This document shows positions 6,341 to 27,303 of a stretch of DNA of 32,000 nucleotides, piece by piece. A program made the translations under genes and the position numbers. Source of the stretch: Acaryochloris marina S15. GTDB lineage: Bacteria; Cyanobacteriota; Cyanobacteriia; Thermosynechococcales; Thermosynechococcaceae. Location of the stretch: NCBI RefSeq assembly GCF_018336915.1, contig NZ_CP064923.1:3720001-3752000 (forward strand), in the 5' to 3' direction. The notes beneath the pieces are model-generated. The model saw nothing but the letters and a program-made list of their open reading frames with translations. It was not told where the DNA came from and did not search any database. How positions within the stretch are numbered: the stretch's first letter is position 1; every line of letters begins with the position of its first letter.

Positions 6341-6425
6341 GCTCAACAGGAAGGAACGCAGGGTCGTGCCTCAAGTAATTGTGGGTTGAGTATACTAGAG
6401 GCTCAGCTCAGCTTCTAACCTACCC

Positions 6426-6803: not shown

Positions 6804-7255
6804 AGATGGGTGATTGTTGGATGGCGATTACCTTGGCAAATACAAGCGGCGTGATCCTCTCGTGTCGTGTGGGCAAGCACACCGATTCATTATTGAATGA
6901 ACTGGTGACTAGCACTGAAGGTAAGACCGATTGCAAGGACTGGAATAGCGACGATTGGGGGGGGTACGAAAGAGTGTTGCCTTGGGAGATTGACCATTAC
7001 ATTGGCAAGGACAGAACTCAACGACTCGAACGCACCAATGGCATTATTCGACAGCACAGTGGTCGATGGCATCGACGCCAGAACAAATTTGGCAAAGTGT
7101 GGGCGCAAACCAAAGTCACTGCTCGATTAGTGGTCAGCTATTTCAATTGGATTTGGACACACAGTCGGCTTAAAACAACGGCGGCACAACGTGCTGATCT
7201 AGCCTCGCGAGCTTGGCATTGGGATGACATACTCACCTACCCCACAATTGTTTGA
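6755..7255 (+). CDS. insB: IS1-family InsB-like catalytic frame (expressed as an InsAB' fusion by -1 frameshift)
   Basis: This frame overlaps insA in the -1 frame. Continuing across the A-run gives DEMWSFVKKKQKHCLPHE...W.A, typical of IS1 transposases. The ORF ends inside the right IR. Confidence 0.8.
   Translation: MVLCEKKQKHCLPHELEMGDCWMAITLANTSGVILSCRVGKHTDSLLNELVTSTEGKTDCKDWNSDDWGGYERVLPWEIDHYIGKDRTQRLERTNGIIRQHSGRWHRRQNKFGKVWAQTKVTARLVVSYFNWIWTHSRLKTTAAQRADLASRAWHWDDILTYPTIV
6768..6774 (+). promoter_or_regulatory. A7 slippery run, the likely programmed -1 frameshift site of the IS1 transposase
   Basis: The sequence GTGAAAAAAAGC sits in the insA/insB overlap. IS1 elements are known to frameshift on an A-run. 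Confidence 0.6.
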
Positions 7256-7582
7256 TGCACGACCGAACGCAGCAAAGGGAGAAATATGATCCGTTGAGAT
7301 ATTTTGAGCTTTCAAAGGAAATAGCACTCTGTGCTGAAGCTTCCATGACATTTTATCTGGCTATTGCTACCCCCAGCGCCGATCGCTGATGCCCATGGGT
7401 GGCTTGAGTTAAAAATACGCTTAACGAAAAAAAAGAGCAAGGTAGAATCTCTTTGATTCAATTATATTTGCAGAAAAAATAAATATTGCTCTTCAAATTT
7501 CCATGAGCTAGATTAAGAACAGATATTTGGGAACTATTGGTTTACTGTCTCTAACGCATCTTCTGCTGTTTTAATTTCTCCC

Positions 7583-10514: not shown

Positions 10515-10822
10515 CAGACTGATGCAGCCCAAGATAAATAGGGGAATAAGTAGACTTTTCACGAATTCGCTCAAAACCTCCAACCTCTTTAGGATGGACC
10601 ACTGTAATCTCCGTTTGAACCGAGTTTAAAATTGAATAAAAAGCAGTGCACATCACAGTATGGAATCGTTCGCTGTTGCCAAAATAAATATCAAATCAAT
10701 TAATTATTGCCTTGAGTACCTATACGTATCATGGCTGACTATTATTTTTTCGATAGCAGATTGTCATAGGGTGTTCTACCAAGGTCTCGATATCATCTAA
10801 GCACTACCGAGACCTACTTTAT

Positions 10823-11209
10823 TTAACGTTTAAGAAAAAACTCTGCTAGGGCATCATCAAATGCATTAGAGGCGAGTCCTGTCGTGTCATCAATGGAGTC
10901 ATTAAATAAAAGCTCTAGATCTCCAGCAAATTCTTCGTTGGGTACTCCTAAGGTATACATAGAATTTTGAGTAGTGATATATATGTGCATATCCTTAGCA
11001 AAAAATCCATCAATCCTTGAAGTTTTAATTTCTTGCCCTTGAGGATATTTAGGATGATTATAAATGTGACCTACTAAAGCAATCCCTTTCTTGACACACA
11101 CACAAGTCCAGTCTTCTAGTACAGAAGAACACAATGCTCGGCAATCTGATGCCGTCATGCTTGATGATAAATGATCTAGATAAAAATCAATCAATTCGTT
11201 AGAGGTCAT
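10823..11209 (-). CDS. hypothetical protein (128 aa from the ATG at 11209), in the AT-rich island
   Basis: This is the only long ORF here, and its composition looks coding (acidic C-terminus, no low-complexity runs). No family was recognised. The listed TTG at 11230 is less likely than the ATG at 11209. Confidence 0.45.
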   Translation of the reverse strand: MTSNELIDFYLDHLSSSMTASDCRALCSSVLEDWTCVCVKKGIALVGHIYNHPKYPQGQEIKTSRIDGFFAKDMHIYITTQNSMYTLGVPNEEFAGDLELLFNDSIDDTTGLASNAFDDALAEFFLKR

Positions 11210-11662
11210 GATGAATCCACACAAAAACAATCACAAAAGAGAAGAATAATACTCTTAAAAAGATTTTATTCTCTTAGATAATATTTTATTCATCTCGACA
11301 TAATGTCGAACTGAGTAATAATTCTGAACTAGGTTATATTGTCTAGCAAAGTAATAGTTTACATTTGTGTATTTTTGTGTATTTCTTAAAAACTAAGTAA
11401 TTATACTAATGTCATTAGAAAATCAAAAAAAGTGAGTTTATTTGGAGGAGTCTAATATATTGATATCTCCTTATAGCCCTTTGATAGTAATCATTTAAGG
11501 ATTATTTTCGCCAAGCAAAAGATACATGGAAGGATATATGAGCGTATAAATATTTTGAGTATTTTTACTGATTTAAGTCTTTTTTTGTCTCTGTTAAAAC
11601 TAGCTTTAGAGATATTTGTTGTACATTTATAGGTATCTTTAAAGTGAGTTAAACTTATTTGA

Positions 11663-11702
11663 TATTCTGAATAATGTATAAGCTTATACATTATTCAGAA
11701 TA
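11663..11702. repeat. 40-bp perfect loop-less palindrome centred on AAGCTT
   Basis: The sequence is TATTCTGAATAATGTATAAG|CTTATACATTATTCAGAATA. All 20 base pairs were checked pairwise from the centre between 11682 and 11683. The symmetry breaks at 11662/11703. Confidence 0.95.
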
Positions 11703-12605
11703 ATTCGCTCGGTAAAATAAGTATATTTAATGAGGTTTGCTAGCTCAATATGTGTCATCGTTGAGGTTATAGCTATTTCTTCGGAATAAGCCTAATGTAT
11801 CTTCGAAGATGCATGAATTTATATGCAAATAGTTGAAAAGATTGTCTCGGTGTTTTCTAGATAACTGAAATGCCCTGGCATACTGGATATAGAAAATGTT
11901 GTATATCTTTTGATGTCAGTTCTATTAGTCCGACAAACAGTTTTACCTAATTACTCTCAATAAACAGTTCTTAGGAGAACAAAATGATACCGTAGATTCC
12001 TCAAACAACATCCAATTTGTACTCTGTGTACTCTAATCTTGGAGATTATCCAGGAACTACATGCCAAAACTCAACTGTATCTGTTTTGGATTGGCTTCTT
12101 TGAAGTCGTAAATCATCATTGCCAACCTATTATCAGTGATGTCAAACGTGACTTTCCCTGGCAAAAGTCCTGCAAATCTATATTCTCTACCCTCGGCTAA
12201 CTGTCCAATATCTGGGGCAAGCTAGATCAGTGATAAGGAGCTATTGGTTTTACCTGGCTGTGCTTTCAGAAAATCGGGTGTTAAGTCTGGAACTAACAAA
12301 ATATGACCATCAGCGATGAATCATGGATAGCTTCAATGATTACCAAGGAAAAGTGGATCAGCGACGGAGGTAATGTTGATCTCAGCTAGTGTAGATCTAA
12401 TAAAAATCCAGGCTGTAGTTTTTATGCTGCATCATCGCCACATACTGAATTGAAGGGTGCCAAAGCTCAGTCTGATTTTCCTGACTCTCTACCTTTATGG
12501 AAAAGTAGGCGCGGTTTGATTTACCTTGGTTTGGACAATCATCCGACATTCAGCAGGTACTAACCATCAAGGGATAATTTTGAGGTTGTCTCTCAACGCA
12601 AGTCC

Positions 12606-14312
12606 ATGTATTCACCTCAAGAGATAGACGTTCAGGATATTGACCATCTCGGTATTATTGCCGGTATCGTCGATGAGATCGGCATTGTCGAAATAGTGGA
12701 TCGATTATTAGGTACTCACGAGCAAGAGAATGTTAGTTGTGGTCAAGTTGTCAAAGCCCTGATTCTAAATGGTATGGGCTTTTTGAGTGCTCCATTGTAC
12801 TTATTTAGTGAGTTTTTCGAAAGCAAAGCAACCGAGCACTTACTCGGTCAAGGTGTACTGCCAGAGCACCTCAACGATACCCGTATCGGTCGAGTCCTCG
12901 ACAAGCTCTATGCCTATGGTGTGACCCAGATATTTATCCATGTGGCAATGGCAGTCGTTCAGAAATTCGATGTAGCTCTAAGGTGTGCGCATCTAGATGC
13001 GACAAGCCTTAGTGTTGAGGGGCAATACTTAGATAAACCACAGGTTGAGGCGTCAGACGAATCCCCCTCTGCACCTGAGTCCCCCTCCCCTGCACTGGCT
13101 GAATCAGAGGAGCCGATACCCGTGAAAATCACCTACGGCTACTCACGGGACAATCGTCGTGATCTCAAGCAGTTTGTATTGAACCTACTGGTGAGTGGGG
13201 ACGGGGGTATTCCTTTATTTTTACAAGTGGGCAACGGTAATGATGCGGACAAAAGTACGTTTGTGCCTATCATCCATGAATTTAAGCAACAGTGGAGTCA
13301 GCAACAGCCAGAGGTGATTGTTGCTGATAGTGCCCTCTACAGTGCCGACAATCTGCAAGCATTAGGAAGTACATCTTGGATTAGCCGAGTTCCAGCAAGT
13401 TCAACGGCAGCCCAAGACTTATTACAAGGGCTGCCGGGTTCACAGTTTCACCCCAGTGCTCTCAACGGCTATAGCTTTGTCGAAGTATGTAGTACCTATG
13501 GAGAGATTCAACAACGGTGGCTGGTGGTTGAAAGTAAAGCTCGCAGAGACTCTGGACTCAAACAAGTGCAAAAGCGGATTGATCAGGCGTTTAGCCAAAA
13601 AACTACTGCACTTAAAACCCTCTGCAAACAGACCTTCTTGTGCCCTGCAGATGCTTTAGCTGCAGCCCAAGATTTTGGCAAAATCCTCAGGTATCACACC
13701 CTTGACGATCTCAAAATCCACAAAAAACCTCATTATTCAAAGGCTGGACGACCGACAAAAGCAACGGTTGTGACTCACTACACCTATTCTATTGAGGCTA
13801 CCTTAACCCTCAATGAGCCAGTCATCGAACGCTATCGGCGGCAAGCAGGTCGTTTCATCTTAGCCACCAATCTCTTGGAACAAGAGCAATGGAGCAATGA
13901 TGATATTCTGCGCGAGTATAAGAACCAGCAGGCGTGTGAAGGAGGCTTTCGCTTTATCAAAGATCCACTCTTCTTTGCCTCTAGTGTTTTCCTGAAGACA
14001 CCTCGGCGTATCGCTGCCTTAGCCATGATCATGGCCTTGTGTTTGATGGTCTACAGCTTAGGACAACGACAGTTAAGAAATGCACTAGAACAAGTACAAA
14101 CAACTCTCCCTAATCAGAAGGGGAAACAAACTATGAAACCTACGTTACGTTGGATTCTCCAATGCTTTCAGGCCGTCCATTTAGTTTGGCTTGATGGTGC
14201 CAAGCATCTCATCAAGCTCAACAGCAGGCAGCAACTTATCTTGCCGTTCCTTGGGAAGGGCTGTAAAAAATATTATCTGCTCTGCTATAGATCTACAGAT
14301 AAAGATCCGTGA
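12606..14312 (+). CDS. IS1634-family transposase, with a C-terminus altered by the IS630 insertion
   Basis: The N-terminal block DIDHLGIIAGIVDEIGIVEIVD..LG...VSCGQVVKALILNGMGF is typical of IS1634-group transposases. The last 8 codons (YRSTDKDP) are read from IS630 sequence. Confidence 0.85.
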   Translation: MYSPQEIDVQDIDHLGIIAGIVDEIGIVEIVDRLLGTHEQENVSCGQVVKALILNGMGFLSAPLYLFSEFFESKATEHLLGQGVLPEHLNDTRIGRVLDKLYAYGVTQIFIHVAMAVVQKFDVALRCAHLDATSLSVEGQYLDKPQVEASDESPSAPESPSPALAESEEPIPVKITYGYSRDNRRDLKQFVLNLLVSGDGGIPLFLQVGNGNDADKSTFVPIIHEFKQQWSQQQPEVIVADSALYSADNLQALGSTSWISRVPASSTAAQDLLQGLPGSQFHPSALNGYSFVEVCSTYGEIQQRWLVVESKARRDSGLKQVQKRIDQAFSQKTTALKTLCKQTFLCPADALAAAQDFGKILRYHTLDDLKIHKKPHYSKAGRPTKATVVTHYTYSIEATLTLNEPVIERYRRQAGRFILATNLLEQEQWSNDDILREYKNQQACEGGFRFIKDPLFFASSVFLKTPRRIAALAMIMALCLMVYSLGQRQLRNALEQVQTTLPNQKGKQTMKPTLRWILQCFQAVHLVWLDGAKHLIKLNSRQQLILPFLGKGCKKYYLLCYRSTDKDP

Positions 14313-15521
14313 TTAGCTAGGCAGCTTGTGTACCCAAGGTTTTGCAATATTTGCCCATTAAGACAGTAATTTCATTGGGAGTCTGACTAAAGTACAGTAG
14401 CCCCTCATCGACCTGCTGAACTAAGTCATCAAATTGCTTGAAGAACCGTAGGTGTGTGCTGCGTTTTTTGAGTTTCTTCCACAAGAATTCAATTGGGTTG
14501 AAGTCAGGAGAATATGTGGGTAATTGGAAAGGAGTAAGGCGAGCGGATTGCTGGTCAAAGAACTGCTTAGTTGCTTTACTGGTGTGATATCTAGCCCCGT
14601 CCTGAATGAGAATAATATGCTTGTGAGTCTGCTGGAGTACTTGAGTTAGAAAAGCAGTATACCCTTCAGAATTGAAGCGTCCCGTCTGACCTTGATAGAA
14701 GAACTGACCAGAATGATAATCAATTAATCCAAACACCTTGTAAGCCTTCCGTTTACCACTGGTGGGCAATGTTGGCTGGTCTCCACGAAGACTCCAGGTG
14801 TAGCTTAACGACCCCCACTGCGCAAAACTGGCCTCATCCCCAAATAAAATTAGGGCATCTTTGGCTGCTGATAAACGCAAAATCTCAGGCCATTTGTGTG
14901 TCATCCATTCTTGTCGCTTGGCTTCATTGAGATGAGCTGCAACAAACCGTGCTCTTTGAAATGAAAAGCCTAAGTTCCTCAGTAGAGTACTCACATAATG
15001 GGGATGATAGGAAACATTGAAGCGTTTCGCAATCAGGTCTTGAACCATTAATGCACTCCAACAACCACACTCGTATCCAGCTTTGAGCGGACCTGCTTTA
15101 ATCCATGACTTGAGCTGTTGTCGTTGCCGTGGAGTGAGTTTGCTGCGACGTCCTTGAGACGCTTTGTATCTAAAGCTAGCGATACCTCGTTTTAGAAATG
15201 CATGCAGATAATCCCTGATCGTTTGTTCGCCTAGTGCCAATGTTTCAGCTACCTGTGCCACTGAACCACCTTGACCAAGCTGCAATAAAGCACTAATACG
15301 TTTGACCAGACGTAAATTCTGACTCCCGTATGCCTGGCGCAGTTTAGCTTCAATCTTTTTGCGTGTTGATTGGGTAAAGCGCAGTTTGAATTGTGCGAGC
15401 ATACTGGATGACCTCTGATAATCTTGAAATCCTTGCCAGAGCTAAGAGTATCAGGAGCTAGTTACTATATTTAATGAAGATGTAGTGTCGCTAAAACCAC
15501 GGATGCTTTTCTGAAGATCTA
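14288..15521 (-). mobile_element. IS630-family insertion sequence (1234 bp) with a TA target duplication
   Basis: The IR TAGATCTACAGATAAAGATCCGTG (14288-) matches the reverse complement of the right end (TAGATCTTCAGAAAAGCATCCGTG) at about 20/24 positions. TA is present at 14286-14287 and 15522-15523, as expected for IS630/Tc1-mariner elements. Confidence 0.85.
14317..15402 (-). CDS. IS630-family transposase (HTH plus DDE_3)
   Basis: It has N-terminal HTH regions and the DDE region LFGDEASF...ILIQDGARYHTS...YSPDFNPIEFLWKKLK. Confidence 0.9.
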   Translation of the reverse strand: MLAQFKLRFTQSTRKKIEAKLRQAYGSQNLRLVKRISALLQLGQGGSVAQVAETLALGEQTIRDYLHAFLKRGIASFRYKASQGRRSKLTPRQRQQLKSWIKAGPLKAGYECGCWSALMVQDLIAKRFNVSYHPHYVSTLLRNLGFSFQRARFVAAHLNEAKRQEWMTHKWPEILRLSAAKDALILFGDEASFAQWGSLSYTWSLRGDQPTLPTSGKRKAYKVFGLIDYHSGQFFYQGQTGRFNSEGYTAFLTQVLQQTHKHIILIQDGARYHTSKATKQFFDQQSARLTPFQLPTYSPDFNPIEFLWKKLKKRSTHLRFFKQFDDLVQQVDEGLLYFSQTPNEITVLMGKYCKTLGTQAA

Positions 15522-15852
15522 TAGCTAGCCTGCTGAATGTAGGATCATTAGACCTCTTGTGTAATTGATCACAAGATTATGAATGGAGTCTCAAATATAT
15601 AGACAGAATTGGCCCAGTTTATGAGCCAATGGCATATCGTGAAATGAATATTGCAAGAGGTCTAGTAGTTCTTCGTCTAATGCATTTAAATTGATAGCCA
15701 TGTTCTGGACATCGGTATCAAACTGAAGCTGGATACCGATGGGAGGCAGAATGCTACAAATCTAGGACTCCAAACCTTTTGAGACCTATTAACAGTTAGA
15801 GTATTGAGGCATGACCTATAGGCTACAAGGGCGTGAGATGTTTTAAAGATCC

Positions 15853-15908
15853 GTTCTAGTTACTTCATCCCAGACTATAAATGTAGCCTGGGATGAAGTA
15901 ATTAGAAC
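15853..15908. repeat. long hairpin / inverted repeat (21-bp arms with one mismatch, 14-nt loop)
   Basis: GTTCTAGTTACTTCATCCCAG (15853-15873) pairs with CTGGGATGAAGTAATTAGAAC (15888-15908). The inner 14 bp are perfect. Confidence 0.85.
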
Positions 15909-16058
15909 CCTATCTAAAGCAATATTGCAGCCGATATCACTGAGAGCCATTGCCTCAAGTTTTTGATGCTACCTCTAATCCAGAAAGTCATTCCAAGGCT
16001 CAAGAAGATGTCTCACAGCCTTAAATAATTAGCAGCTGTAACTCTAAGAGAGATTCGT

Positions 16059-16571
16059 TTAGCTATGAACGGGCTGAATTGAGCGTTCAGCAACTTTTTG
16101 AGTCGCTGCATATAGTTCACGGATTTGTTCTTCGGAAGAGTAAAGTCTTCGGTCTCGTAAGATGCTGAATGCCTTAGCATCCTCTTGGGCAATCTTCGAA
16201 TCAAGAAAATATGCCATATCTTCTCTACCGGGTTTCCCCCATTCCAGAACTGCCCAGCGAATCAAGCCTTTAAAAATGTCATGATCCCAGGCAAAGGGCA
16301 CATGACGGTGAAGATTCGCTTGTTGATGTAATAACTCTGAATAATGCTTGACGAGAGATGGATCATCAGAGCTCATCGTATTTTTGTAGTTCGCAAACAT
16401 TTGAGCATCTTCTTGAGCGGTTTCTTCATTTACAAAATAAGCAACATCTCTTCTGGGGGGTAAGGCCTGTGGCCCTCCAAATTTTTCGCCAAGGCTAGAA
16501 CACTCTACCACTAGCCAATGAATAGGTGGGTGCGCAACTTTGTGGTCCCACTCTAACGCGACGTATACCAT
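16059..16571 (-). CDS. hypothetical protein built from two tandem copies of an about 60-aa unit
   Basis: Residues 7-62 and 94-138 align: E/AWDH..(8)..W.V.E ... R.D.AYF......AQEDA..F. It has an ATG start and is the only long ORF in the region. No family was recognised. Confidence 0.6.
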   Translation of the reverse strand: MVYVALEWDHKVAHPPIHWLVVECSSLGEKFGGPQALPPRRDVAYFVNEETAQEDAQMFANYKNTMSSDDPSLVKHYSELLHQQANLHRHVPFAWDHDIFKGLIRWAVLEWGKPGREDMAYFLDSKIAQEDAKAFSILRDRRLYSSEEQIRELYAATQKVAERSIQPVHS

Positions 16572-17718
16572 AATTTCTTACCCTAACTGATTATTCATAG
16601 AGAACAATTTCAGGTTTAAACTATCAATATCTCAGAAAAAATACAACTGGAAAATATTTACTATAATCCTGCTTAAGTTATTGCCATTACTGAATAAAAG
16701 TAGCTAAAAATACAAAAACTTTGTTACAAAAAAGACAACGAAATATTTACTGTAAAATATTTAATATAAAACCATATATTTCTCTTTTGATAATTAAATA
16801 TCTCTATCTCTAGCGACCCAATCTATTGATATTGAGCGAATAGTGAATGTATCGATTTACATCTTCTCAACAATGATCAGTGAGGTGGGAAAGAGCCCAA
16901 AACCTAAAAGCCATAAACTCTGTGTAAGCTGGGTTGAGCTTGCACAGTGGAGGACTATGGCCCAACTTATGACTAAAGAAATAGATTTCTGATTCTAAGG
17001 GACACTTGGAAGGAATTAATTGATAGATGAGACTCGCAGTTGAACGTTTTTCAATATTGACTGCAGCAAAGAATGAATGTTCTAGCTTCAAAAAAGATGA
17101 TTTGAAACGGTAATCGATTGATTTGGAGTACTTGCAGCTGTTTATATAAAACATCATTTTTCTCTATCGATTGAATGGATGGGGTGCATTCAGCTAGTCG
17201 ACATTTACTGCTTCTAAGGCAAAATAAAATCCGAACATGAAACAAATAGTCCAAACGCTCATGATTTGAGTAAATACGAATGCCAGCATAGTTGGTTATC
17301 CTTTTCTTTCTGCGGAAGTTGTGGGTTGGTTCTGCACTGCTGTGCTTTGTTGAATTCACTATCCTCTAAATTTTCAGCAGAAAAAATCCTGAAAAGTTCA
17401 GATTCTTTCAGGTATGAGTTCAGGTATTGATATGGGCAATTAGCTGACTGATGCCTTGTTGGCAGGGTTTGCCCTTTTTTGAAGACAGTGGATATCTTCG
17501 AAGAACACTCGAATTGCCTATCTGATAACTGCCATTGTGTTGCCTAGGACAGATTTAGCTGCCATGAAACGTTGATGAGATCGCAAACCCATCCAAACCG
17601 TTGACTAAAACCATCATTCTCTAGAAACATAAACACTTCTCCGTCTTCAGACAGCCTCGCATAGAGCCAACTCTTCATCCGACTCACAATCAACAAAGAT
17701 AGATGCAACCAAAGTCAT

Positions 17719-17852
17719 GTTTAACGGGGGTATCAATACAGATAAATTCTCGCCCCCCTGACGTAAATGAGGCTTGTTCTATTTTGTCGTTTTTCTAACC
17801 CTCAGAATAGAAGGTTGCTTTCTGAACGTCTGAATTGAGGAAAAGGCTAGAA
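17719..17852 (-). repeat. attC-like junction element C (downstream of the Uma2 gene)
   Basis: On the plus strand it reads TTAACGG 17721-17727, GGTTG 17813-17817, CTGAACGT 17822-17829 and GGCTAGAA 17845-17852. In the gene direction it ends CCGTTAAAC, which fits GTTRRRY. An internal hairpin pairs GGGGG 17726-17730 with the C-run at 17753-17758. Confidence 0.4.
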
Positions 17853-17938
17853 GTTCATTGCTTCTGCTGCAATGCAAACATCAGGTGTGTGCGGATGTGA
17901 CTTGCCATCAGTTTATTCCTGGCTGACAACTTCAATCC

Positions 17939-18502
17939 TTACTCCAGCAGCCAAGCAAATAACTCTCTTACCGTAAGCTGTAACTCGTTGGCAAAAGAGG
18001 GTGCAGGAATGATTTTATCTGGCTCATCCAGGACTTCAGGTTCTTGCTTGGGACGATAGACAAACACTGTTTGTTCACCTGGGTCGATTAACCAACCCAC
18101 TTCGGTTCCATGCTGCAAACAGTGAAGAATATTCTTTGTGACCTTTGTTTGGCTTTGATTGGGAGATAGGATCTCAACTACCCAATCTGGTGCAGTAGAA
18201 AACGCGTTGGCAATTTCCCCATTCTGATCGCGGGGAATTCGGTGCCAAAGAAACACTGCAATATCAGGAACGATTGAACGATGGCCAAATGTACAGCGCA
18301 GTTCAGGAAAGGCACGAGCAATACGTTTGGATTTAACGACCCCATTGATAGCAGGTACAAGTTCTCCTTGAATGACGCTATGTTTCCCTTGGGGTATTGG
18401 CTTTTGAATAATTTGGCTATCAAGGTATTCATTGGCAGGTTTCGTTTCTGGCAATTCCAAAAACTCTGCCAAGGTCAGCGTTTTTGAGGAGGGCTGTACC
18501 AT
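17939..18502 (-). CDS. Uma2-family (DUF820) putative restriction-endonuclease-like protein
   Basis: It shows the typical cyanobacterial Uma2 layout: LTLAEFLELPE...EYLDSQI...P..KHS..QGEL...PDIAV...APDWVVEILSP. Confidence 0.85.
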   Translation of the reverse strand: MVQPSSKTLTLAEFLELPETKPANEYLDSQIIQKPIPQGKHSVIQGELVPAINGVVKSKRIARAFPELRCTFGHRSIVPDIAVFLWHRIPRDQNGEIANAFSTAPDWVVEILSPNQSQTKVTKNILHCLQHGTEVGWLIDPGEQTVFVYRPKQEPEVLDEPDKIIPAPSFANELQLTVRELFAWLLE

Positions 18503-18650
18503 TTAGGTTTACTCTTTGCCCGTAAGTTTGGAAACTCAACACTATTTTATCTAGAAACTGTATGGGGAGTACGTTTTTGCTGGGGATTACGACTATTGCG
18601 CCTGACAAATCACTAGAAAAGCTGGATTCTCTTTCATAATCAACGACCCA

Positions 18651-18754
18651 AGCCAGCTAACTCCAATTAACGGCCTTGCCTCACTGGCGTGAGTAGACCT
18701 CAAAAAACAATATGGCTATGGTTACTGAACGTCCGGTGCAGGGGTTGGCTAGAA
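18651..18754 (-). repeat. attC-like junction element B (between the TA cassette and the Uma2 gene)
   Basis: On the plus strand it reads TTAACGG 18667-18673, GGTTAC 18720-18725, CTGAACGT 18725-18732 and GGCTAGAA 18747-18754. The outer arms CCAGCTAAC (18653-18661) and GTTGGCTAG (18744-18752) pair at 7/9. The element starts 17 nt after the antitoxin stop. Confidence 0.45.
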
Positions 18755-18770
18755 ATGGATTTAGCTCAAA

Positions 18771-19064
18771 CTAAGGTGTTGGTTGAATGGTTAGCTTGAA
18801 CCCAAGCGCTTTAGTAACTTCAGCTATCGTCGAAAATGTGGGGTTACCATCAGGAGACAGCGCTTTATATAGCCCTTCTCTACTCAAACCTGTATCTCGG
18901 GATAGCTGACTCATATTTTTAGCTCTAGCGACTACCCCTAGGGCATGAATAATTAAAGCAGGATCATCTTCGGCTTCTTCCAGGCATGCTTCTAGATATA
19001 GCTGAATATCTTCTTCTGTTTTGAGATGTTCGGCTGAATCCCAGCGGGTTATGCTTATGGCCAT
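18771..19064 (-). CDS. addiction-module antidote protein (HTH, HigA-like family)
   Basis: The sequence ...AEHLKTEEDIQLYLEACLEE.DDPALIIHALGVVARAKNMSQLSRDTGLSREGLYKALS..GNP.F.T matches the probable-antidote family that pairs with the killer family upstream. Confidence 0.85.
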   Translation of the reverse strand: MAISITRWDSAEHLKTEEDIQLYLEACLEEAEDDPALIIHALGVVARAKNMSQLSRDTGLSREGLYKALSPDGNPTFSTIAEVTKALGFKLTIQPTP

Positions 19065-19067
19065 AAC

Positions 19068-19364
19068 TCAATCCTCCAACTGTTTAGCAATTTCTTTAGC
19101 CCTTTTGATGTCAGCATTTTATGAGCCTTTATCACCACCAGAAAGCAATATGACAACCACTGGACCACGTTGTATAAAGTAAACCCTGTAACCAGGACCA
19201 TAATGAATGCGAAGTTCGCTAACACCTTCCCCGACGGGGGCGACATCTCCAAAGTTGCCAATCTCGATACGGTCAATACGTGCTTGTATTCGCGCTTTAG
19301 CCTTTCGATCTCGCAGTTTCTTGAACCAATTAGCAAAAATGTCTGTTTGGCGCACCTCAATCAT
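19068..19364 (-). pseudogene. addiction-module killer protein (RelE/ParE superfamily) with a premature in-frame TAA
   Basis: The sequence is MIEVRQTDIFANWFKKLRD..AKARI..RIDRIE.GNFGD..PVGEGVSELRIHYGPGYRVYF......VVILLSGGDKGS*. The frame continues as NADIKRAKEIAKQLED to a TGA at 19068-19070, which abuts the antitoxin ATG. The TAA is at 19119-19121. Confidence 0.8.
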
Positions 19365-19422
19365 GTGTCAACCATAGTTAACGAGCAATAAGCTGTCAAC
19401 TACAGTTATCAGTCAAGATGAT

Positions 19423-19566
19423 TCTAGGCTGGGTCAAATTTTAACGGCTCGGCATCAGGGGCGCGAGAATTATTTTAAAGCGTTGACCAGTAGCGTGTTT
19501 CGAGCGTCCTGCCTGCATGCCATGGTTAGACTACAGCACAGAACATGCAAGACTTATACGCTAGAG
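19423..19566 (-). repeat. attC-like junction element A (between the OLD-family gene and the TA cassette); best-folding copy, core 19439-19531
   Basis: In the gene direction the core begins GTCTAAC (fits RYYYAAC) and ends GTTAAAA. About 22 bp pair between 19440-19468 and 19498-19530. An unpaired spacer (GGCTC vs CAT) lies after the terminal box, and all bulged bases (19502-03, 19507, 19510-11, 19516) are on one arm. The shared blocks are TTAACGG 19441-19447, GGTTAG 19524-19529, CAGAACAT 19539-19546 and CGCTAGAG 19559-19566. Confidence 0.55.
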
Positions 19567-19574
19567 GCGATCGC
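19567..19574. repeat. HIP1 palindrome GCGATCGC (one of seven exact copies in the window)
   Basis: Exact copies were read at 2473-2480, 2770-2777, 8446-8453, 19567-19574, 24762-24769 and 29547-29554, plus this one. HIP1 enrichment is a known cyanobacterial hallmark. Confidence 0.8.
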
Positions 19575-19860
19575 CCAAAACCAGAAAACGGTACTCACAA
19601 AAGTATAACTGGAGCAAAATGAAGACGGGACAAAGACAAGAAACACTTACTAAGCCATCAAAAATTACAACCAAAACGAGATAGTGGTAACAACAGACAA
19701 ATGTATGGCTGAGACGAGAATATGATATCAGTGTTTTGGCTAATATTCCCAATCACTGAACTTAGGAGGTTTTTAAACATAACAAAAATATACAGTGTTT
19801 CGTTTCAGTAAGCTTGTTAATTTAGTCACTATCTAATCAACATCTTGCTCGCACAATGCC

Positions 19861-22065
19861 TCATACTACTATTTCTTGAATCACTGATTTAATTTCTGAA
19901 TCAATTTCATCTTTCCTCATCAAGCTTGCCAACTTAGAAGTATCTTTTTCCTTTTTAAAGCGTAGATTATATTCTTTACAAACTTCATCTAATAAAAGAT
20001 CACCAGGAACTATATCCATCTTCTTAGATTCCCAAATATTTTCTATTTCGTCAATTTTACTAGTGTAAATAGATTCAAGATTTCTTTTCTCTGTTTCTAA
20101 CTGACTAATCATTGATTGAATTGATTCAGTGATTTTATCAACTCCCTCTTGATCTTGGAATTCTTCAAAAATTGATTTAGTTTCTGGATAAATGGGTTTG
20201 CAGACTATTTTTACTACTCGTTTGCAAATTGCAAATTGCTTTAAATTTTCTGCACATCCATTAATTTTATCTTGTACTTCGTTTTCTGTTGGTAATTCTT
20301 GATTAAGAGTATTCGATATTTTTCGTTTATACTCAATGAAGCTTCTTACTGCTCTCGGACAAATTAGATAGTTCTCCACTTCCCTCTTATTTAATACTTT
20401 AAGTTTTGCATTCTCCCCAAGCCTGGCTTGCATTTTCAAAATCTCAGAATCGTCCTTTTCATCTCTATCTATGAGGAACCACATCCTGACTTGACGTTTA
20501 GCTAGAAAGTTTAAAGTTTCTTCTGTAGCAAAATGAGCAAAATTACGTGCTCCACCCATACGAATAAATCCTACATTTGCTTGACTAAGATTAACGCCTA
20601 GTACAGAAGCCCATTCTCGAATTGCATCCTCGTCTGTTATACCCTCTACAAAAACAAGACGGTCAAACATAAATAGAGAGCTTAATCTAATACCAAGCTC
20701 TTGTGGAATCTTTGCTTCTGCCTCTCCAATATCAATTTGACGTATCTGAGTTGAATTTGGTTTCGTAACCAAATATACATTATTCATTTCAGCAGTATCT
20801 AAGAAATTAGTTGAGTGAGTTGTTATAAAAACCTGGCAATCACAACTTATACGTTTCAAATATCGCATCATACTTGTCTCAAGAGCTGGATGCAAATGTA
20901 TTTCTGGCTCTTCAACAAGTAGTATATCTGGATGCTCAAACTCAACATCTAGTAATAGTCTTAAAGCTTCCTTTATGCCCGACCCATTTACTCCCACCAA
21001 AAAATTATCGACATCCATTTCGGCAGACATCTGATTTGTAGATATTGAGGAGTCGCTTTCAAATGCATCAACATACACACCTAATAATGCTGAAACTGTT
21101 TCTTGGATGTTTTTAAGAGCTTCAAATCCCCCTCTTCGCGTTTTTAATGAAAGAAGTCGTTCAGCCTCTTCTTTACCTATTCTCTTACGTTTCTCAGTAA
21201 GATAGAGAACGTTAATTTCACCTATTCTCTTCAAAAGAGTTTTGACGTAATGAGGTATTGATGCTTCTTCTCCAGCAAAAGTTCCTATTTTATTACTCAG
21301 GACTTTATTCACAGTAGATATTGATTCTTCTTTATAGCTAGTAGACAGATCAGGGATTGCACTTTTTAGATCTTCAATAGATGCTTGCGTCCCAACTCTT
21401 TCTTCAAGAATTTTTATGGTGTCACCATCAATTTTTCTAGCTAAATACTCAAGAGGGGGACGGTCACGTAAGTCAGGTCGAATATATCTTCTAAGACCGT
21501 CTAAATCTAGAGAATTCAAGTCCTCTGAAATATTATCTAACTCTTTAGATCGTAAAAAATTATCATATAGTTCCAAAGCACTTCTTTCATCTACACTCAA
21601 AATGATTCCTTCACAATTAAAAAGTGCTACTCCAGATTTAGGAATTCCTCCTAAACTCACTTTTTGAATATAGCTAAAGGTAGATGGTGGAGGCATAACA
21701 ACAAGTGCCACAGAAAGATGAAGTGATGGATTAATTCCATCCACTGCATTTTTCATTTGCGGTGCTTCTGTAGCAATATCTCTTATCAAAGCATCTCTTT
21801 CAGATAATTTCAAAGAAAACACTAGATTAATCTCTATAGGATATTGAGATTCTTTGTTAAAGAAATCAATTTCCTTTCCAATATTAGGGCTGAGATTTAA
21901 TACTTCCCCATTATTTATGCATTTAAAGAACGCATTTATAGCAGAAAGAGCACTTGATTTTCCAGAGTTATTTTTGCCTATAAGGACATTGAATTCTCCA
22001 CAATCATCTAGTTTCGCATCTTCAATACTGCGAAATCTTTTGATTATTACATTTTCAAGCTTCAT
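19861..22065 (-). CDS. OLD-family nuclease-like protein: N-terminal ABC/AAA_15-type ATPase fused to a Toprim (DUF4435-like) domain with a long helical C-terminal tail
   Basis: Motifs seen are Walker A GKNNSGKS (aa 30-37), signature-like NGSGIKEAL (aa 360-368), Walker B ILLVEEPEIHLHP (aa 381-393) and H-loop FITTHS (aa 413-418). The Toprim motifs are VFVEGITDE (aa 471-479), LIDRDEKDD (aa 531-539) and REVENYL (aa 561-567). The protein is 734 aa. Confidence 0.8.
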   Translation of the reverse strand: MKLENVIIKRFRSIEDAKLDDCGEFNVLIGKNNSGKSSALSAINAFFKCINNGEVLNLSPNIGKEIDFFNKESQYPIEINLVFSLKLSERDALIRDIATEAPQMKNAVDGINPSLHLSVALVVMPPPSTFSYIQKVSLGGIPKSGVALFNCEGIILSVDERSALELYDNFLRSKELDNISEDLNSLDLDGLRRYIRPDLRDRPPLEYLARKIDGDTIKILEERVGTQASIEDLKSAIPDLSTSYKEESISTVNKVLSNKIGTFAGEEASIPHYVKTLLKRIGEINVLYLTEKRKRIGKEEAERLLSLKTRRGGFEALKNIQETVSALLGVYVDAFESDSSISTNQMSAEMDVDNFLVGVNGSGIKEALRLLLDVEFEHPDILLVEEPEIHLHPALETSMMRYLKRISCDCQVFITTHSTNFLDTAEMNNVYLVTKPNSTQIRQIDIGEAEAKIPQELGIRLSSLFMFDRLVFVEGITDEDAIREWASVLGVNLSQANVGFIRMGGARNFAHFATEETLNFLAKRQVRMWFLIDRDEKDDSEILKMQARLGENAKLKVLNKREVENYLICPRAVRSFIEYKRKISNTLNQELPTENEVQDKINGCAENLKQFAICKRVVKIVCKPIYPETKSIFEEFQDQEGVDKITESIQSMISQLETEKRNLESIYTSKIDEIENIWESKKMDIVPGDLLLDEVCKEYNLRFKKEKDTSKLASLMRKDEIDSEIKSVIQEIVV

Positions 22066-22680
22066 ATTTTTATCGATGTTATTTCCTTAGAGAGGTATTT
22101 TTCGAGAGATAGGAGGAAGAATAGAATTTAAGCAGTAACCCTTACAACAATAAAATATATTTTATGATTCAAGTATGACTTTATTAAACAATACTTCAGA
22201 CAGTTATAAATGCAACGCCTAGTATTCCTGATGTTTTCGTTGAGTCTAAAATCTTGAAAGCCTTATTTTTTCTTCAAATTTAAAACAATCCGAGCTATTA
22301 CGGCTCAATTTCTCTATCAATAATTTCAAACCATTACTTTAATAATGAATTGGCTCTATCTTTACATTATTTCCTGACGAGTAATTCTACAATCTCACTC
22401 TCACTAAACATAAGGACTAACTATAATTAGAAGGCAAATTTCCTCCTAACACGAAATAAATTAATAGCTTGTCTGCTCCTTAAAGCCAAGCCTCTTCTAC
22501 ATTAGTACTACAGCAGAAAGAGTACGTATTACGGAAATTTCCCGATATGCAAAATTGTAGTTGATTATCTAAAAACAATATAGAAAAAGCATTTCTAGCA
22601 TCTTTATCATGCAGCAATGAAGAATGTTAATGGACAAAATAACTGTATAAGTCCCAATATCGGTTGTTATCAGACACACA

Positions 22681-23033
22681 ATGCCACCCCAAAAACTCCT
22701 TGACCAAGTCCGTGATGTAATGCGAACCAAGCATTATGCGTACAGTACTGAAAAAACTATGTGCAGTGGATCCGGCACTATATTATCTTCCACAACAAAC
22801 GTCATCCTAAAGAAATGGCTGAACCTGAAGTTGAAGCGTTTCTGACTCATCTAGCCGTAAGCGAACATGTTTCTGCCTCAACCCAAAATTAAGCCCTCTG
22901 TGCCCTGATATTTCTGTACCGATACGTTCACAAATAGCCTCTGACTGAAACGACTGAAGCAGCGCGTGCCCAACGCTCACAACATCTACCCACAGTCTTT
23001 ACCCCTGACAAAGTAAGCCGACTCCTCCAGTAA
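22681..23033 (+). pseudogene. intI: N-terminal remnant (about 118 codons) of an integron-integrase-like tyrosine recombinase
   Basis: Conceptual translation gives MPPQKLLDQVRDVMRTKHYAYSTEKT[-1 nt near 22758]YVQWIRHYIIFHNKRHPKEMAEPEVEAFLTHLAVSEHVSASTQN*ALCALIFLYRYVHK*PLTE..RSQHLPTVFTPDKVSRLLQ*. The stops are at 22890-22892 (TAA), 22935-22937 (TAG) and 23031-23033. It is collinear with the IntI1 N-terminus ([21 protein letters not shown]..RHP...EVEAFLS.LA....VS.ST..QAL.AL.F.Y...L......RLPVVLTPDEV). The catalytic domain is absent. Confidence 0.8.
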
Positions 23034-23098
23034 GGAAAGTTTAGACCAGATATTCTCTAGAATAGTGAAGCAAACGCAGACCTTCAGGAGTAATAGTA

Positions 23099-25666
23099 GT
23101 GGAGTCCCGTTACAATCCCACCGAGATTGAACCCAAATGGCAAGCAAGCTGGGCCAAACAGGGGCTAGATGCAACTCCTGAAGATACCAGCAAACCCAAA
23201 TTCTATGCCCTGTCCATGTTTCCCTACCCCTCAGGTAGCTTACACGTCGGCCATACCCGCAACTATGTAATTACCGACGTCATCGCCCGCCTCAAGCGGA
23301 TGCAGGGCTACCGAGTTCTCCAGCCCATGGGTTGGGACGCCTTTGGTCTACCTGCCGAAAATGCCGCCATCGCTCGGGGGATTCATCCCGCCGAGTGGAC
23401 CTATGCCAACATGGCGCAAATGAAAAAGCAGCTAGAGCCTCTGGGACTCTCCATTGACTGGAGCCGGGAAATCGCCACCTGCTCTCCTGACTACTATCGG
23501 TGGACCCAGTGGATCTTTCTGCAATTTCTGGATATGGGACTGGCTTACCAGAAAGAAGCCGCTGTCAACTGGGACCCGGTGGACCAAACTGTTCTTGCTA
23601 ACGAGCAGGTGGATAATGAAGGTCGCTCTTGGCGATCCGGGGCCAAGGTGGAGCGCAAACTGCTGCGCCAGTGGTTCCTAAAAATTACCGACTATGCGGA
23701 AGAACTCTTAACCGACTTAGATAAACTGACCGGCTGGCCTGAACGGGTCAAAACCATGCAGGCCAACTGGATTGGCAAATCCGTGGGGGCCTATCTGGAG
23801 TTCCCAATTGTGGGTATGGATGACAAGGTAGCCGTATTCACGACCCGCCCTGATACGGTCTATGGCGTCACCTATGTGGTGCTGGCCCCAGAACATCCCC
23901 TCACTCCCCAAGTCACCAGCAAAGCCCAGAAAAAAGCGGTGGATAAATTTATTGAAGAAGTTGGGGCCGAGAGCGAAATGGATCGCACGGCGGAAGACAA
24001 GCCTAAGAAAGGCATTCCCACAGGTGGCAAAGCCATCAACCCCTTTACGGGGGAAGAAATTCCCATCTGGATTGCCGACTACGTACTGTATGAGTACGGG
24101 ACAGGTGCGGTGATGGGGGTGCCCGCCCATGACACACGAGACTTTGTCTTTGCCAAGCAGAATAAGCTGCCGATTCAAACGGTAATTGTGCCTGAAGGTA
24201 GTGATGCGGATACGCCCTTAGAAGCCGCCTATACCGAACCTGGATTGATGGTGAACTCCGGTGAATTTGATGGCAAAGCCTCCACCGAAGGCAAGCAGGC
24301 CATTATTGCCAAAGCCGAGACCAAAGGCTGGGGAAAGGCTAGGGTGCAATATCGTCTGCGGGATTGGCTGATTTCCCGACAGCGCTATTGGGGCGTGCCG
24401 ATTCCGGTGATTCACTGTCCCAAGTGTGGGGCTGTGCCCGTACCCGAAGCCGATCTGCCCGTGGAGCTGCCCGAAGATGTGGAGTTCTCGACTCAAGGTG
24501 GATCGCCCCTGGCCAAACTAGAATCCTGGGTCAATGTCGCTTGTCCCACCTGCGGGGCAGATGCCAAACGGGAAACCGATACCATGGATACCTTTATTGA
24601 TTCGTCTTGGTATTTTCTTCGTTATCCCGATGCCAAAAATGACAAAGCAGTCTTTGATTCAGCGAAAGCCAATGATTGGCTACCCGTTGATCAATATGTA
24701 GGTGGGATTGAACATGCGATTTTGCACCTATTATATTCGCGATTTTTTACGAAAGTGATGCGCGATCGCAAACTCCTCAACTTCGATGAACCCTTCAAAA
24801 AGCTGCTCACCCAAGGGATGGTGCAAGCTCTCACCTATAAAAACCAGGAGACGGGGAAGTATATTGCACCTATTAATGTTGATGCTGACGATCCTAAGGA
24901 TCCAGAAACAGGTGCACCCTTGGAAGCCTTTTACGAAAAGATGTCCAAGTCTAAATACAATGGCGTCCCCCCGGAAGAGGTCACCAATAAGTACGGAGCC
25001 GATACCGCCCGTCTATTCACCTTATTTAAGGCCCCCCCTGAAAAAGATCTGGAGTGGGAAGGCGCAGATGTGGAAGGTCAATTCCGGTTTCTGAATCGGG
25101 TTTGGCGACTGGTCAGTGAACATGCCGCCCAAGCCAAGGGCAAGAAAGCAAAGGTAAATAAAGCCAAGCTCTCGAAAACAGAGAAGGAACTGCGAAGATC
25201 CGTTCATATTGCCATCAAAGAAACCAGTGAAGATTTAGACGGCGATTATCAGTTCAATACTGCCGTATCCGAACTGATGAAGCTGAGCAATGCCCTCAGT
25301 GATTCCAAGGAGAAAGCGTCTCCCGTCTATGCCGAAGGTGTGGAAACCTTGCTGCTGCTCCTCACCCCCTTTGCCCCCCATATCAGTGAAGAGCTGTGGG
25401 AGAACCTAGGGCATTCCGAGTCGATTCTGGGTCAGCCTTGGCCTCAGGTGGATAAAGAGGCTCTGGTGGCCGATGAAATTACCTTAGTGATTCAAATTAT
25501 GGGCAAAACCCGAGGCACTATCCAAGTGCCGGCTGGAGCCAGCCGGGAAGATTTGGAACAGCTCGCCCGCGAGTCGGAAGTGGCCCAGCGGTATATTGCT
25601 GACAAAGAAGTGAAAAAGGTGATTGTCGTTCCGGGCAAGCTGGTGAACTTTGTGGTGCCAAAATAG
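23099..25666 (+). CDS. leuS: leucine--tRNA ligase
   Basis: It has the HIGH-type motif [11 protein letters not shown], the KMSKS motif and an 855-aa class Ia layout with a CP1 editing insertion. The GTG start is preceded by AGGAG about 9 nt upstream. Confidence 0.96.
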
Positions 25667-25677
25667 TACTGAGGCCG

Positions 25678-26313
25678 TCAGGCTAGGGTATCTAAGGACT
25701 GGGCAATATCCTCAAACACTGGGGTGGAATTCATAATAAAGGTGTGAATGGCAGGCACGGTCACTACCCTGTGACCGCCACTGGCTTCTGCAACTGAGAG
25801 AATGCCATCGTTTAATTCGTTGCCAAAGGGGAGCCACGAGGCCCTGGGACCACCCGTGCCAACGTAGATTTTGGTATGGGGCGGTAGAGTGAGTTGGTCA
25901 ATAAAACTATCCTGGGCGAGTAACTGTCCCATTTCTCCTGTGAGCAGCCGATAGAGGCCGACTTTGGAGAAGAATTTGGCGGCTTTACAGGCCATCATGG
26001 GTGGGGCGAGGAAGAAGCAGGCTACTGGTGGAGGGGAGATTAACTTGGGGTAGGCGTTGCGGATAATAATGGTGCCGAGGGAATGGCCCAACAGGGTATA
26101 GGGTTGGGAACTGATTTTAGTGTGAATCCGTTGCACCAATCGGTCTGTGACGGTTTGCAAGGATTCTAAGGTGGGGGAATAGCCAAATAGGTGGGGGGTA
26201 TGGCCCAGCTTGCGGAGTCGGTGCTGTAAGTACAGCATGGACAGGGGCGTTCTACCCATACCATGAATCAATACTACATTTAGTCCCATCCACTTACGCT
26301 CAGCACTATGCAT
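25678..26313 (-). CDS. alpha/beta-fold hydrolase (esterase/lipase-like)
   Basis: It has an oxyanion-region VVLIHGMG and a nucleophile elbow LLGHSLGT. It is 211 aa. Confidence 0.7.
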   Translation of the reverse strand: MHSAERKWMGLNVVLIHGMGRTPLSMLYLQHRLRKLGHTPHLFGYSPTLESLQTVTDRLVQRIHTKISSQPYTLLGHSLGTIIIRNAYPKLISPPPVACFFLAPPMMACKAAKFFSKVGLYRLLTGEMGQLLAQDSFIDQLTLPPHTKIYVGTGGPRASWLPFGNELNDGILSVAEASGGHRVVTVPAIHTFIMNSTPVFEDIAQSLDTLA

Positions 26314-26564
26314 CGATAGAGATCATTATTGCTTTTAGCTGTAAGTTATGGCGTGACTATTTGCGATCTCAGTTCGATGGAGGTTGCGATCACTGGACTT
26401 AAAATCTAGTTGGATCGAACTTCCAAATCTTGAGATTGATAGCGCTTGGAGTTACGATTCGATTATTGGAGATGGTGAAACCGAGGCAGGAAAAGTCATT
26501 GTCAGTAACGAGAATTGTAGATGTCTTAGAGCTGGAATAGGGGCGACCATAGAGTCAAACAATA

Positions 26565-26990
26565 TCAATCAGCAATCTCAAAAGGGTTAATCAGGGATGC
26601 CCCTGTATCAGCAAAATCACTCACATTACGAGTCACCAAAGTTAAGTCACGAGTAAGAGCAATAGCAGCAATTTGTTTGTCGATGGCATTTTGGGGGTGG
26701 GGAGCGCATAAACACCCCCATACCTGAGCTTCCACTTCCGTAAAATCGAGAATATGGTCAGCATAGCTGTCTAAAATGGTTTGCAACCAATTCTCTAATA
26801 GGCTAGCTTGCGGTAAATCACCACGATAGCGAATCAGTTCAACCCCTCGACGTAACTCTCCAATAGTGATGGCACTGATGTATAAGCGAGCTTTTTGCTC
26901 AGCAGCAACCTGAAAAAACTTCCGTACACCCGGATCAGCTCTTGCCTGCTTGCGGAGTTCACTAATGACGTTGGTATCAATCAAATACAT
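26565..26990 (-). CDS. vapC: type II toxin, PIN-domain ribonuclease (VapC/FitB-like)
   Basis: It has the MYLIDTNVISELRK N-terminal PIN motif and later acidic residues (...ALTRDLTLVTRNVSDF). It overlaps the upstream antitoxin gene by 14 nt. Confidence 0.85.
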   Translation of the reverse strand: MYLIDTNVISELRKQARADPGVRKFFQVAAEQKARLYISAITIGELRRGVELIRYRGDLPQASLLENWLQTILDSYADHILDFTEVEAQVWGCLCAPHPQNAIDKQIAAIALTRDLTLVTRNVSDFADTGASLINPFEIAD

Positions 26991-27210
26991 CTTGAGCTAA
27001 GTCATCCTGGATTCGCTCAAAATCTTCGTCACAGCCAACCTGTGGAATTTGGCAAAGAACTTCAGAGAAGGACTTCTGGGGTGGATGAAACAATACCTGT
27101 TCTAAGATTTTGCGATGTTCGGCCTCAGCGCTCACGCCATTCTGACTAGCCCGCATCTTTAAGGCTCTGACTATAGAGTCGTCAATATTACGAACAATCA
27201 GATTTGCCAT
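26977..27210 (-). CDS. type II antitoxin, ribbon-helix-helix (FitA/VapB-like)
   Basis: The start MANLIVRNIDDSIVRALKMRASQNGVSAEAEHRKILEQ is typical of FitA-like RHH antitoxins. It is translationally coupled to vapC. Confidence 0.75.
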   Translation of the reverse strand: MANLIVRNIDDSIVRALKMRASQNGVSAEAEHRKILEQVLFHPPQKSFSEVLCQIPQVGCDEDFERIQDDLAQDVFD

Positions 27211-27303
27211 AAACTTTACTGTAGTTTAGGGATTCTCTCTAACGATAGCATTGATATCATTATATGATCCTCAACTGCTTATGCCACCACATCAGGTACC
27301 TGA

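Follow-up and report, generated by a model that had tools for sequence, protein, structure and literature searches.

The interval between maf and leuS on the chromosome of Acaryochloris marina S15 lies within a 32-kb stretch of contig NZ_CP064923.1, referred to here as the window. At a probability of about 0.9, we read this locus as the integrase-proximal end of a sedentary chromosomal integron (SCI) whose integrase is dead in the window strain. The interval spans 8.7–23.1 kb of the window, and the product of leuS is identical to NCBI WP_212662249.1/QUY41043.1 by protein comparison. The integron reading is supported for positions 18663–23033, which hold a broken integrase gene (intI), an attI region and two attC sites, and is unproven for 16059–18600 and beyond. 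An earlier interpretation made from the sequence alone (the sequence-only reading) had proposed a decayed integron with a cassette array extending leftwards to 16059 or 10823; the segment from 18663 to 23033 stands, whereas the remainder lacks attC sites and is left unproven.

The locus was compared with seven related contigs or genomes sharing the leuS region at 91–95% identity: L002/L003, L005, L087 (strain ‘Moss Beach’, CP071717), L088 (strain CCMEE 5410), L091, L092, and L093. The last comes from Logan SRR12447963; a contig identical to the window belongs to the same series of runs. A JGI metagenome contig, L086, which overlaps only the attI and intI part, was the single contig retrieved when metagenomes were scanned with an attI-hairpin pattern.

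The intI stub adjoins leuS on its upstream side and same strand, with its reading split over three frames. The repaired product (117 aa) matches the integron integrase model TIGR02249 at 133.6 bits over model positions 1–112 of 315, and PF13495 at 110 bits, but XerD at only 30.9 bits. Its lesions were read against the intact 322-aa intI of L093, which occupies the same position directly upstream of leuS. Nine nucleotides are missing in frame after codon 2 and one is missing from a run of A at ~22750 (codon 27); two codons have become stops, CAA to TAA at 22890–22892 (codon 74) and CAG to TAG at 22935–22937 (codon 89). The 1-nt deletion and the two stop codons noticed in the recombinase remnant from sequence alone are hereby confirmed to the base. 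L093 homology to the window ends after ~23029, and ~718 bp present in L093 (405–1122) are deleted, which removed codons ~121–322 together with most of the 3′ flank. The proposed truncation before the catalytic domain is thereby mapped. Since the IntI-specific insertion and the catalytic residues are absent from the window (only codons 1–~120 are kept), this is a former integron and not a complete one.

The family identity of the stub is borne out by its intact orthologues. The L086 copy is 95% identical to that of L093 and scores 469.8 bits with TIGR02249 (cutoff 265), against 155.6 bits with XerD (cutoff 329.6). Its residues 10–321 align with the Vibrio cholerae VchIntIA structure (PDB 2A3V; E 2.5e-95), and this alignment includes the IntI-specific ALERKYP segment that both L093 and L086 carry. 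Of the 120 full-length proteins that match the intact one best, many are cyanobacterial and labelled ‘integron integrase’ by their source. An XerC/XerD- or phage-type integrase, a placement that the sequence-only reading had named among those that would refute it, is contradicted by the scores of the fragment and the intact orthologue and by the modular variation between strains described below.

None of the GTDB genomes scanned with the 117-aa fragment holds a close relative (69% at best); the scan retrieved 80 intI loci (L006–L085). Near-universal truncation of cyanobacterial intI, a candidate explanation when all 120 best protein matches proved to be ≤204 aa, was discarded upon finding that most of the 80 inspected loci are full length in one frame. 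About a quarter of them are truncated, frameshifted, or interrupted, among them Egbenema L022 (internal deletion), Drouetiella L025 (several frameshifts), and Pseudanabaena minima L072 (1.26-kb insertion). In some non-cyanobacterial loci (L037, L070, L058), attC arrays lie downstream of intI on the opposite strand.

The attC sites were sought, with filters off, using surrogate covariance models trained only on other genomes, to which neither the window nor any close relative contributed. Model R1 was built from eight attC sites of Stenomitos frigidus ULC18 (L027) and Leptolyngbya sp. JSC-1 (L031), where direct repeats spaced 600–800 nt apart upstream of intI represent textbook attC sites. Model R2 was built from the 62 sites that R1 found in the 80 intI loci of cyanobacteria, Chloroflexi, Acidobacteriota, Planctomycetes, and others. 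In the window, R2 identifies two attC sites only, attC1 and attC2, the next best score being 11.6 bits, and R1 alone already ranked these two first. Each is intergenic, located just downstream of a minus-strand gene, with ~690 nt between them. Both match on the plus strand, as the bottom strand should if cassettes lead away from intI; the unequal spacers (6 nt first, 5 nt second) and the extrahelical bases on the 3′ arm give the same orientation. Across ~87 kb (the window plus three related loci, 55 kb), matches fell inside the maf–leuS interval only. Two of the three gene-junction palindromes picked out in the sequence-only reading are thus attC-like, whereas the third, further left, is unmatched by any attC model. 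An Rfam scan of 10000–23200 at E≤10 returned no relevant family and no attC match. In the alignment of the 62 sites (A3; columns 182 and 191), the extrahelical base beside the L box is C in 53 and the second is T in 56; these sites are mostly environmental and cyanobacterial, and their 5-nt spacer has the consensus GAATT. Classical attC sites, such as that of aadA7, have G at the first extrahelical position.

The attI region lies between the stub and the first cassette. Its insertion point, ATAG↓TT (the arrow marks the crossover), precedes the start of intI by 260 nt. A conserved 23-nt hairpin at 22427–22449 occurs nowhere else within the window, and the region is 78% conserved with the attI side of a near-intact intI in L004. 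The attI site looks intact.

Comparison of strains revealed how this end of the locus varies. Five different sequences follow an identical ...CCTTCTAATTATAG↓TT in the window, L002, L005, L086, and L092, and homology of the other four to the window stops exactly between 22421 and 22420. At attC1, homology resumes at G↓TT, where three different upstream sequences converge on CG↓TTA(A/G)AATTTGACC, the start of the toxin–antitoxin cassette; the homology break with L002 and L005 falls within 8 nt of this site. In ‘Moss Beach’ and CCMEE 5410, the change of sequence falls at G↓TT within each strain’s own attC; beyond the attI junction, attC G↓TT breakpoints were seen in three strain comparisons. Junction-bounded presence or absence of cassettes was found between the window and L002, L005, L092, L087, and L088. 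With breakpoints at the G↓TT of attI and attC, the variation is junction-delimited, module by module, and the locus does not vary as one block. The three outcomes that the sequence-only reading had named as refuting it (no attC match, a Xer or phage integrase, variation as one block) were each examined through a surrogate of the proposed test, and each result favours that reading.

These comparisons bear on whether the locus is an integron at all. It could instead be a generic genomic island or defence hotspot beside leuS, borne on an integrative element with a decayed phage- or Xer-type integrase, and with palindromes that are terminators or chance occurrences. Insertion sequence (IS) elements and defence-type genes do gather on both sides of leuS, and the hairpins are thermodynamically unremarkable. 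Such an island is nevertheless highly improbable: the fragment favours IntI over Xer by ~100 bits, the intact orthologue is a full IntI, attC models trained elsewhere match exactly the junctions on the predicted strand, strains differ module by module at G↓TT, and no att-type direct repeats were found flanking the island. Two other ideas were rejected. The leuS-side sequence GTTTAGRCC, present in all strains, was considered a secondary IntI site until the intact L093 showed it to be the start of the conserved leuS upstream region. A simple MazE–PIN cassette indel was considered on a 13-nt match found after Uma2 in the window and after PIN in L002, which is at chance level (E 0.25).

Table 1. 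Features of the maf–leuS locus in the window; E-values of attC matches are rough because the calibration was shortened.
Feature	Position	Strand	Details
Third palindrome	17725..17780 (approx.)	+	GGGGG/CCCCC hairpin starting at AAC; no attC-model match
170-aa open reading frame (ORF)	16059..16571	-	Internal duplication; no Pfam, NCBIfam or PADLOC match
Third module	17925..18670	-	Uma2-family nuclease gene 17939-18502 plus upstream element; PF05685 129 bits; PADLOC PDC-S03
attC2	18663..18751	+ (bottom strand)	R2 25.6 bits, E 1.6e-3, full-length; R1 13.5 bits
attC2 R′ AAC	18669-18671		Crossover between 18671 and 18670
Cassette 2	18671..19444	-	774 bp, toxin–antitoxin pair; bounded by attC1 and attC2 crossovers
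Antitoxin (HI1420 type), 97 aa	18771..19064	-	TIGR02684 123.7 bits, cutoff 53.7; PF21716
RelE/ParE-family toxin (HI1419 type), 81 aa	19119..19364	-	TIGR02683 117.8 bits, cutoff 62.85
attC1	19437..19532	+ (recombinogenic bottom strand)	R2 30.0 bits, E 1.8e-4, full-length; R1 16.1 bits
attC1 R′ AAC	19443-19445		Crossover between 19445 and 19444
Cassette 1	19445..22420	-	2976 bp, ~34% GC; bounded by attI G↓TT and attC1 G↓TT
734-aa ABC-type ATPase + TOPRIM nuclease (OLD family)	19861..22065	-	Pfam AAA_15, AAA_21, OLD-like_TOPRIM
attI region	22421..22680	.	Crossover between 22421 and 22420; top strand ...ATAG↓TTAG...
intI pseudogene	22681..23033	+	N-terminal ~120 codons of integron integrase; 1 frameshift, 2 internal stops, catalytic half deleted
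leuS	23099-25666	+ (same strand as intI stub)	Product identical to WP_212662249.1

The gene content of the modules is cassette-typical, as noted from the sequence alone: a TIGR02683/TIGR02684 toxin–antitoxin pair, a Uma2 nuclease (PF05685), and a large protein combining AAA_15 with an OLD-like TOPRIM domain, in DNA with a GC content of 32–37% over 19.5–22.5 kb versus ~50% in core genes. The entire cassette 1 segment is swapped for unrelated DNA in L002, L005, and L092. Among PADLOC models, its 734-aa product matches fused PARIS AriAB best (118 bits), followed by AriA (106.6 bits), then GajA and Old, and retron-effector models also match; it is a candidate anti-phage nuclease of PARIS/OLD-like type. 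A defence gene as the integrase-proximal cassette, as proposed from the sequence alone, is predicted by homology only, from the PARIS/OLD-like candidate in the first position. First-position cassettes of other strains encode GmrSD_N-type proteins and a RelA/SpoT-like protein. Cassette 2 is found in L002 at ~91% identity and partly in L005. L002 homology to the third module ends at 17925, and neither R2 nor R3, a model made from Acaryochloris-lineage sites to seek eroded ones, recognises a 3′ attC in this module. The divergent, single-strand layout described earlier applies to the genes of the OLD-family protein, toxin, antitoxin, Uma2 nuclease, and 170-aa ORF, all on the minus strand; further left it is broken by a plus-strand transposase (12606–14312), which is part of a strain-specific IS insertion.

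The attI region and its hairpin showed further variation. Two divergent attI allele types, ~70% identical, exist among strains with ~94% identical leuS (22421–22680 of the window versus L092 1654–1915 and L087 9628–9769). Both types keep the crossover-side hairpin and a palindrome-like TACGRAAATTTSCSRATAT motif, which could be a candidate binding site for the integrase or a regulator. In L002, the 32-nt attI-proximal hairpin sequence occurs a second time, far down the array at 1332–1410, directly upstream of an adh_short gene and fused to the element found upstream of Uma2 (compare window 22418–22449 and 18532–18580). No simple attI × attC event accounts for this distal copy of the attI left side, which could stem from a secondary-site event or be a shared promoter or leader module.

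Several observations weigh against the integron interpretation or limit its reach. Recognisable attC sites number just two, and they score 30.0 and 25.6 bits versus 41–46 bits in relatives. The single-strand fold energy of attC1 and attC2 is no better than that of shuffled sequence (z = +0.94 and −0.94); as even a strong attC of L002 reaches a z of only −1.5, folding energy is no useful discriminator here. No promoter signal rises above chance: a consensus scan of the attI/intI region gave 4 sites versus 3.5 expected, and one minus-strand consensus site lies at 22805–22777, inside the intI stub. How the cassettes are expressed is inferred. The PARIS/OLD assignment of cassette 1 is by hidden Markov model (HMM) similarity alone. 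Neither R2 nor the lineage-specific R3 finds an attC left of 18663 in the window, and the segment 16059–18600 varies differently between strains.

The last two points concern the distal part of the interval. It is possible, though on balance doubtful, that the entire maf–leuS interval, including 16059–18600 and the AT-rich stretch at 10.5–12.5 kb, is one fossil array whose older attC sites have eroded. Leaving IS elements aside, every ORF of this AT-rich DNA is encoded on the minus strand, the majority being short and without a family match, and the interval in ‘Moss Beach’ is filled likewise. Erosion itself can be seen directly in L002, where the attC2 orthologue carries a deletion and scores 10.6 bits only. 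A junction is also reused: ...ATACCCCCG↓TTAAAC (CCCCCG↓TTAAAC) at the third palindrome precedes the same short cassette in L002, a second context. For this reason the third palindrome may be a relic of an attC R′ end, as yet unconfirmed, although neither R2 nor R3 matches it even at E≤10.

The distal sequence, however, behaves as one unit. Segments 10515–12542 and 15544–18599 are collinear with ‘Moss Beach’ at 96–97% identity, compared with 91–93% in core genes, and the gaps in collinearity are window-specific IS insertions at 9030–10514 and 12543–15543. The distal breakpoints at 17925, 17995, and 18599 do not fall at attC-like sites, and the general and lineage-specific models are equally silent left of 18663. 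Membership of the 170-aa ORF in the array is likewise unproven: it is located in the distal block 15544–18599, shared with ‘Moss Beach’ at 96%, with no attC nearby. Two other palindromes occur in this AT-rich DNA, a 56-nt near-perfect hairpin with 25-nt arms at 15853–15908 (GTTCTA...TAGAAC) and a 40-nt perfect palindrome at 11663–11702. Both are conserved in ‘Moss Beach’ and L091; reading GTT...AAC, they run opposite to an attC, and no attC model matches them. The best Rfam match, a sub-threshold microRNA on the 15853–15908 hairpin, was set aside as spurious.

The integrase-proximal end of the integron preserves a record of how the integrase was lost. The window, L002, L005, and L092 share one junction of the ~718-bp deletion (…CTCCTCCAG(T/C)AAGGAAAGTTTAG…), and the truncation is therefore ancestral to them. 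The stop codons differ between lineages; the 9-nt deletion is common to the window, L005, and L092, and the 1-nt deletion to the window and L092. These dead alleles differ by 12–15%, the divergence at neutral sites among the at least four lineages that carry them, and each adjoins a different first cassette, which implies that cassette turnover went on after the integrase died. This turnover probably proceeded at least partly by homologous recombination. One route is seen directly in L092, which carries the 9-nt and 1-nt lesions of the window stub and a leuS 94.3% identical, but an attI only 70.8% identical and resembling the ‘Moss Beach’ type: between attI and the stub lies the breakpoint of a recombination mosaic. 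Strains with working integrons could thus have supplied cassettes through homologous recombination, and such import would be sufficient. In Vibrio, transformation-driven cassette traffic is documented (PMC12614218). The genus displays a succession of decay stages, from intact intI (L093, L086) through a stub with attI (window, L002, L005, L092) to an attI remnant only (‘Moss Beach’) and cassettes without attI or intI (CCMEE 5410).

Turnover after integrase death has a second conceivable route, in which the array is still active: a second, working IntI, from another locus of the genome or from a plasmid, would use attI and the two attC sites, and the orphan attI would go on receiving cassettes in place, in trans. 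In the four contigs with the same intI deletion, the first cassette differs every time and yet starts at exactly ATAG↓TT; an attI allele type (86–89% identical) is common to the window, L002, L005, and L086; and a related family member has two intI loci in one genome (L030, L041). We consider this route unlikely, since the window contains no second intI, the 120 best relatives found with the intact protein include no full-length match named A. marina, and L092 shows homologous recombination swapping attI and array against the stub. Recognition of attI is usually integrase-specific, which also counts against it. If it were true, integrase-less platforms would be live cassette acceptors, and CALIN-type loci (clusters of attC sites lacking integron-integrases) would belong to an active integron network of the population.

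Under the preferred reading, a sedentary integron with a dead integrase, the locus would have formed in the classical manner. The ancestral IntI (322 aa, encoded divergently from the cassettes) would have recombined the folded bottom strand of the attC of a circular cassette with attI at G↓TT, so that each new cassette landed next to attI. What remains is, in order, the intI stub, attI, cassette 1, attC1, cassette 2, attC2, and a Uma2 module without an attC. The toxin–antitoxin pair of cassette 2 would stabilise the array. On its own, the locus in the window cannot move cassettes, and later differences among strains with the same dead allele would reflect homologous recombination with strains carrying working integrons, an integrase acting in trans, or both.

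Other variable or inserted elements surround the locus. On the far side of leuS, beyond an alpha/beta-hydrolase gene, ~26300–27300 is a second strain-variable spot, which holds a toxin–antitoxin pair in the window (PIN 26565–26990 and an RHH antitoxin 26977–27210), AbiH and an acetyltransferase in CCMEE 5410 (L088 13513–15043), and an mCpol-domain protein in L091 (13387–13794). Three IS insertions in the window are absent from ‘Moss Beach’. The 9030–10514 element (1.5 kb) encodes a 369-aa ORF without a Pfam match and has inverted ends GGGCGTA and a flanking 9-bp direct repeat, ATCAGTCTG. At 12543–15543, an IS630-type (DDE_3) element (14284–15525) is nested in the end of a DUF4277+DDE_Tnp_1 element. 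The third, at ~6314–7287, is an IS1-like InsA/InsB pair; the other two lie inside the maf–leuS interval.

Integrons in Cyanobacteria have already been reported by genome surveys (PMC2426708; PMC4889954), and many relatives of this integrase are named as such, which qualifies the remark in the sequence-only reading that they are rarely discussed. A full-text literature search for Acaryochloris together with integron returned incidental mentions only, and the element is not described for this genus in the literature searched. The locus documents a fixed-locus chromosomal integron in a chlorophyll-d cyanobacterium, with all decay stages within one genus.

One related category is the CALIN, defined by IntegronFinder (Cury et al. 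2016, PMC4889954), which lists loss of intI as one origin. By its predicted features, the locus would be classed as a CALIN, with at least two attC sites within 4 kb and a pseudogene as the only intI. The attC sites, as identified by surrogate models, are <1 kb apart and there is no functional intI; the difference is that the window keeps an N-terminal pseudogene and attI. In the same survey, intI pseudogenes were found near 15 of 279 CALINs with a profile of the C-terminal IntI-specific domain (IntI_Cterm), so that an N-terminal-only stub like that of the window would be missed. More generally, stubs limited to the N-terminus escape pseudogene searches based on the C-terminal domain. The decay series in Acaryochloris can be used to ask how CALINs arise and whether arrays evolve on after integrase loss.

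The closest known analogue is the Xanthomonas integron next to ilvD, which, in the account attributed to Gillings and colleagues (2005), reportedly occupies a fixed locus, often with an inactivated integrase and strain-specific arrays. The likeness lies in a fixed housekeeping-gene neighbour (leuS in the window), an intI that is intact or inactivated depending on the strain, and strain-specific arrays varying at the integrase-proximal end. The Acaryochloris locus differs in its cyanobacterial host, which belongs to another phylum, in its neighbour gene, in a very short recognisable array (two attC sites), and in a deletion allele common to strains with different first cassettes. A genus-wide survey of the Xanthomonas integron is available (bioRxiv 10.1101/2025.06.18.660453).

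Integrons that carry defence genes offer a third comparison. Mobile integrons encode phage defence systems (bioRxiv 10.1101/2024.07.02.601719), and SCIs are presented as biobanks of defence cassettes (PMC12614218). The large first cassette of the window is PARIS/OLD-like, and GmrSD-like genes come first in other strains; unlike those systems, the host is a cyanobacterium and not a Vibrio or an enterobacterium, and the assignment in the window is by HMM only. The picture of integrons storing defence genes would thus extend to cyanobacteria by homology only.

A further comparison is with the complete cyanobacterial integrons of Stenomitos frigidus and Leptolyngbya, whose IntI belongs to the same clade (59–67% identity over the fragment). 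They share the attC architecture AACGG...TCCGCTGCA...GTT, with extrahelical T and C, on the intI strand and upstream of intI. They differ in having an intact intI and at least six regularly spaced attC sites, against a dead intI and two weaker attC sites in the window. The element is therefore of a known kind, a degraded, CALIN-like sedentary chromosomal integron with a known mechanism, and it leaves the understanding of how integrons work unchanged; the case is nonetheless clean and well resolved, and its host is unusual.

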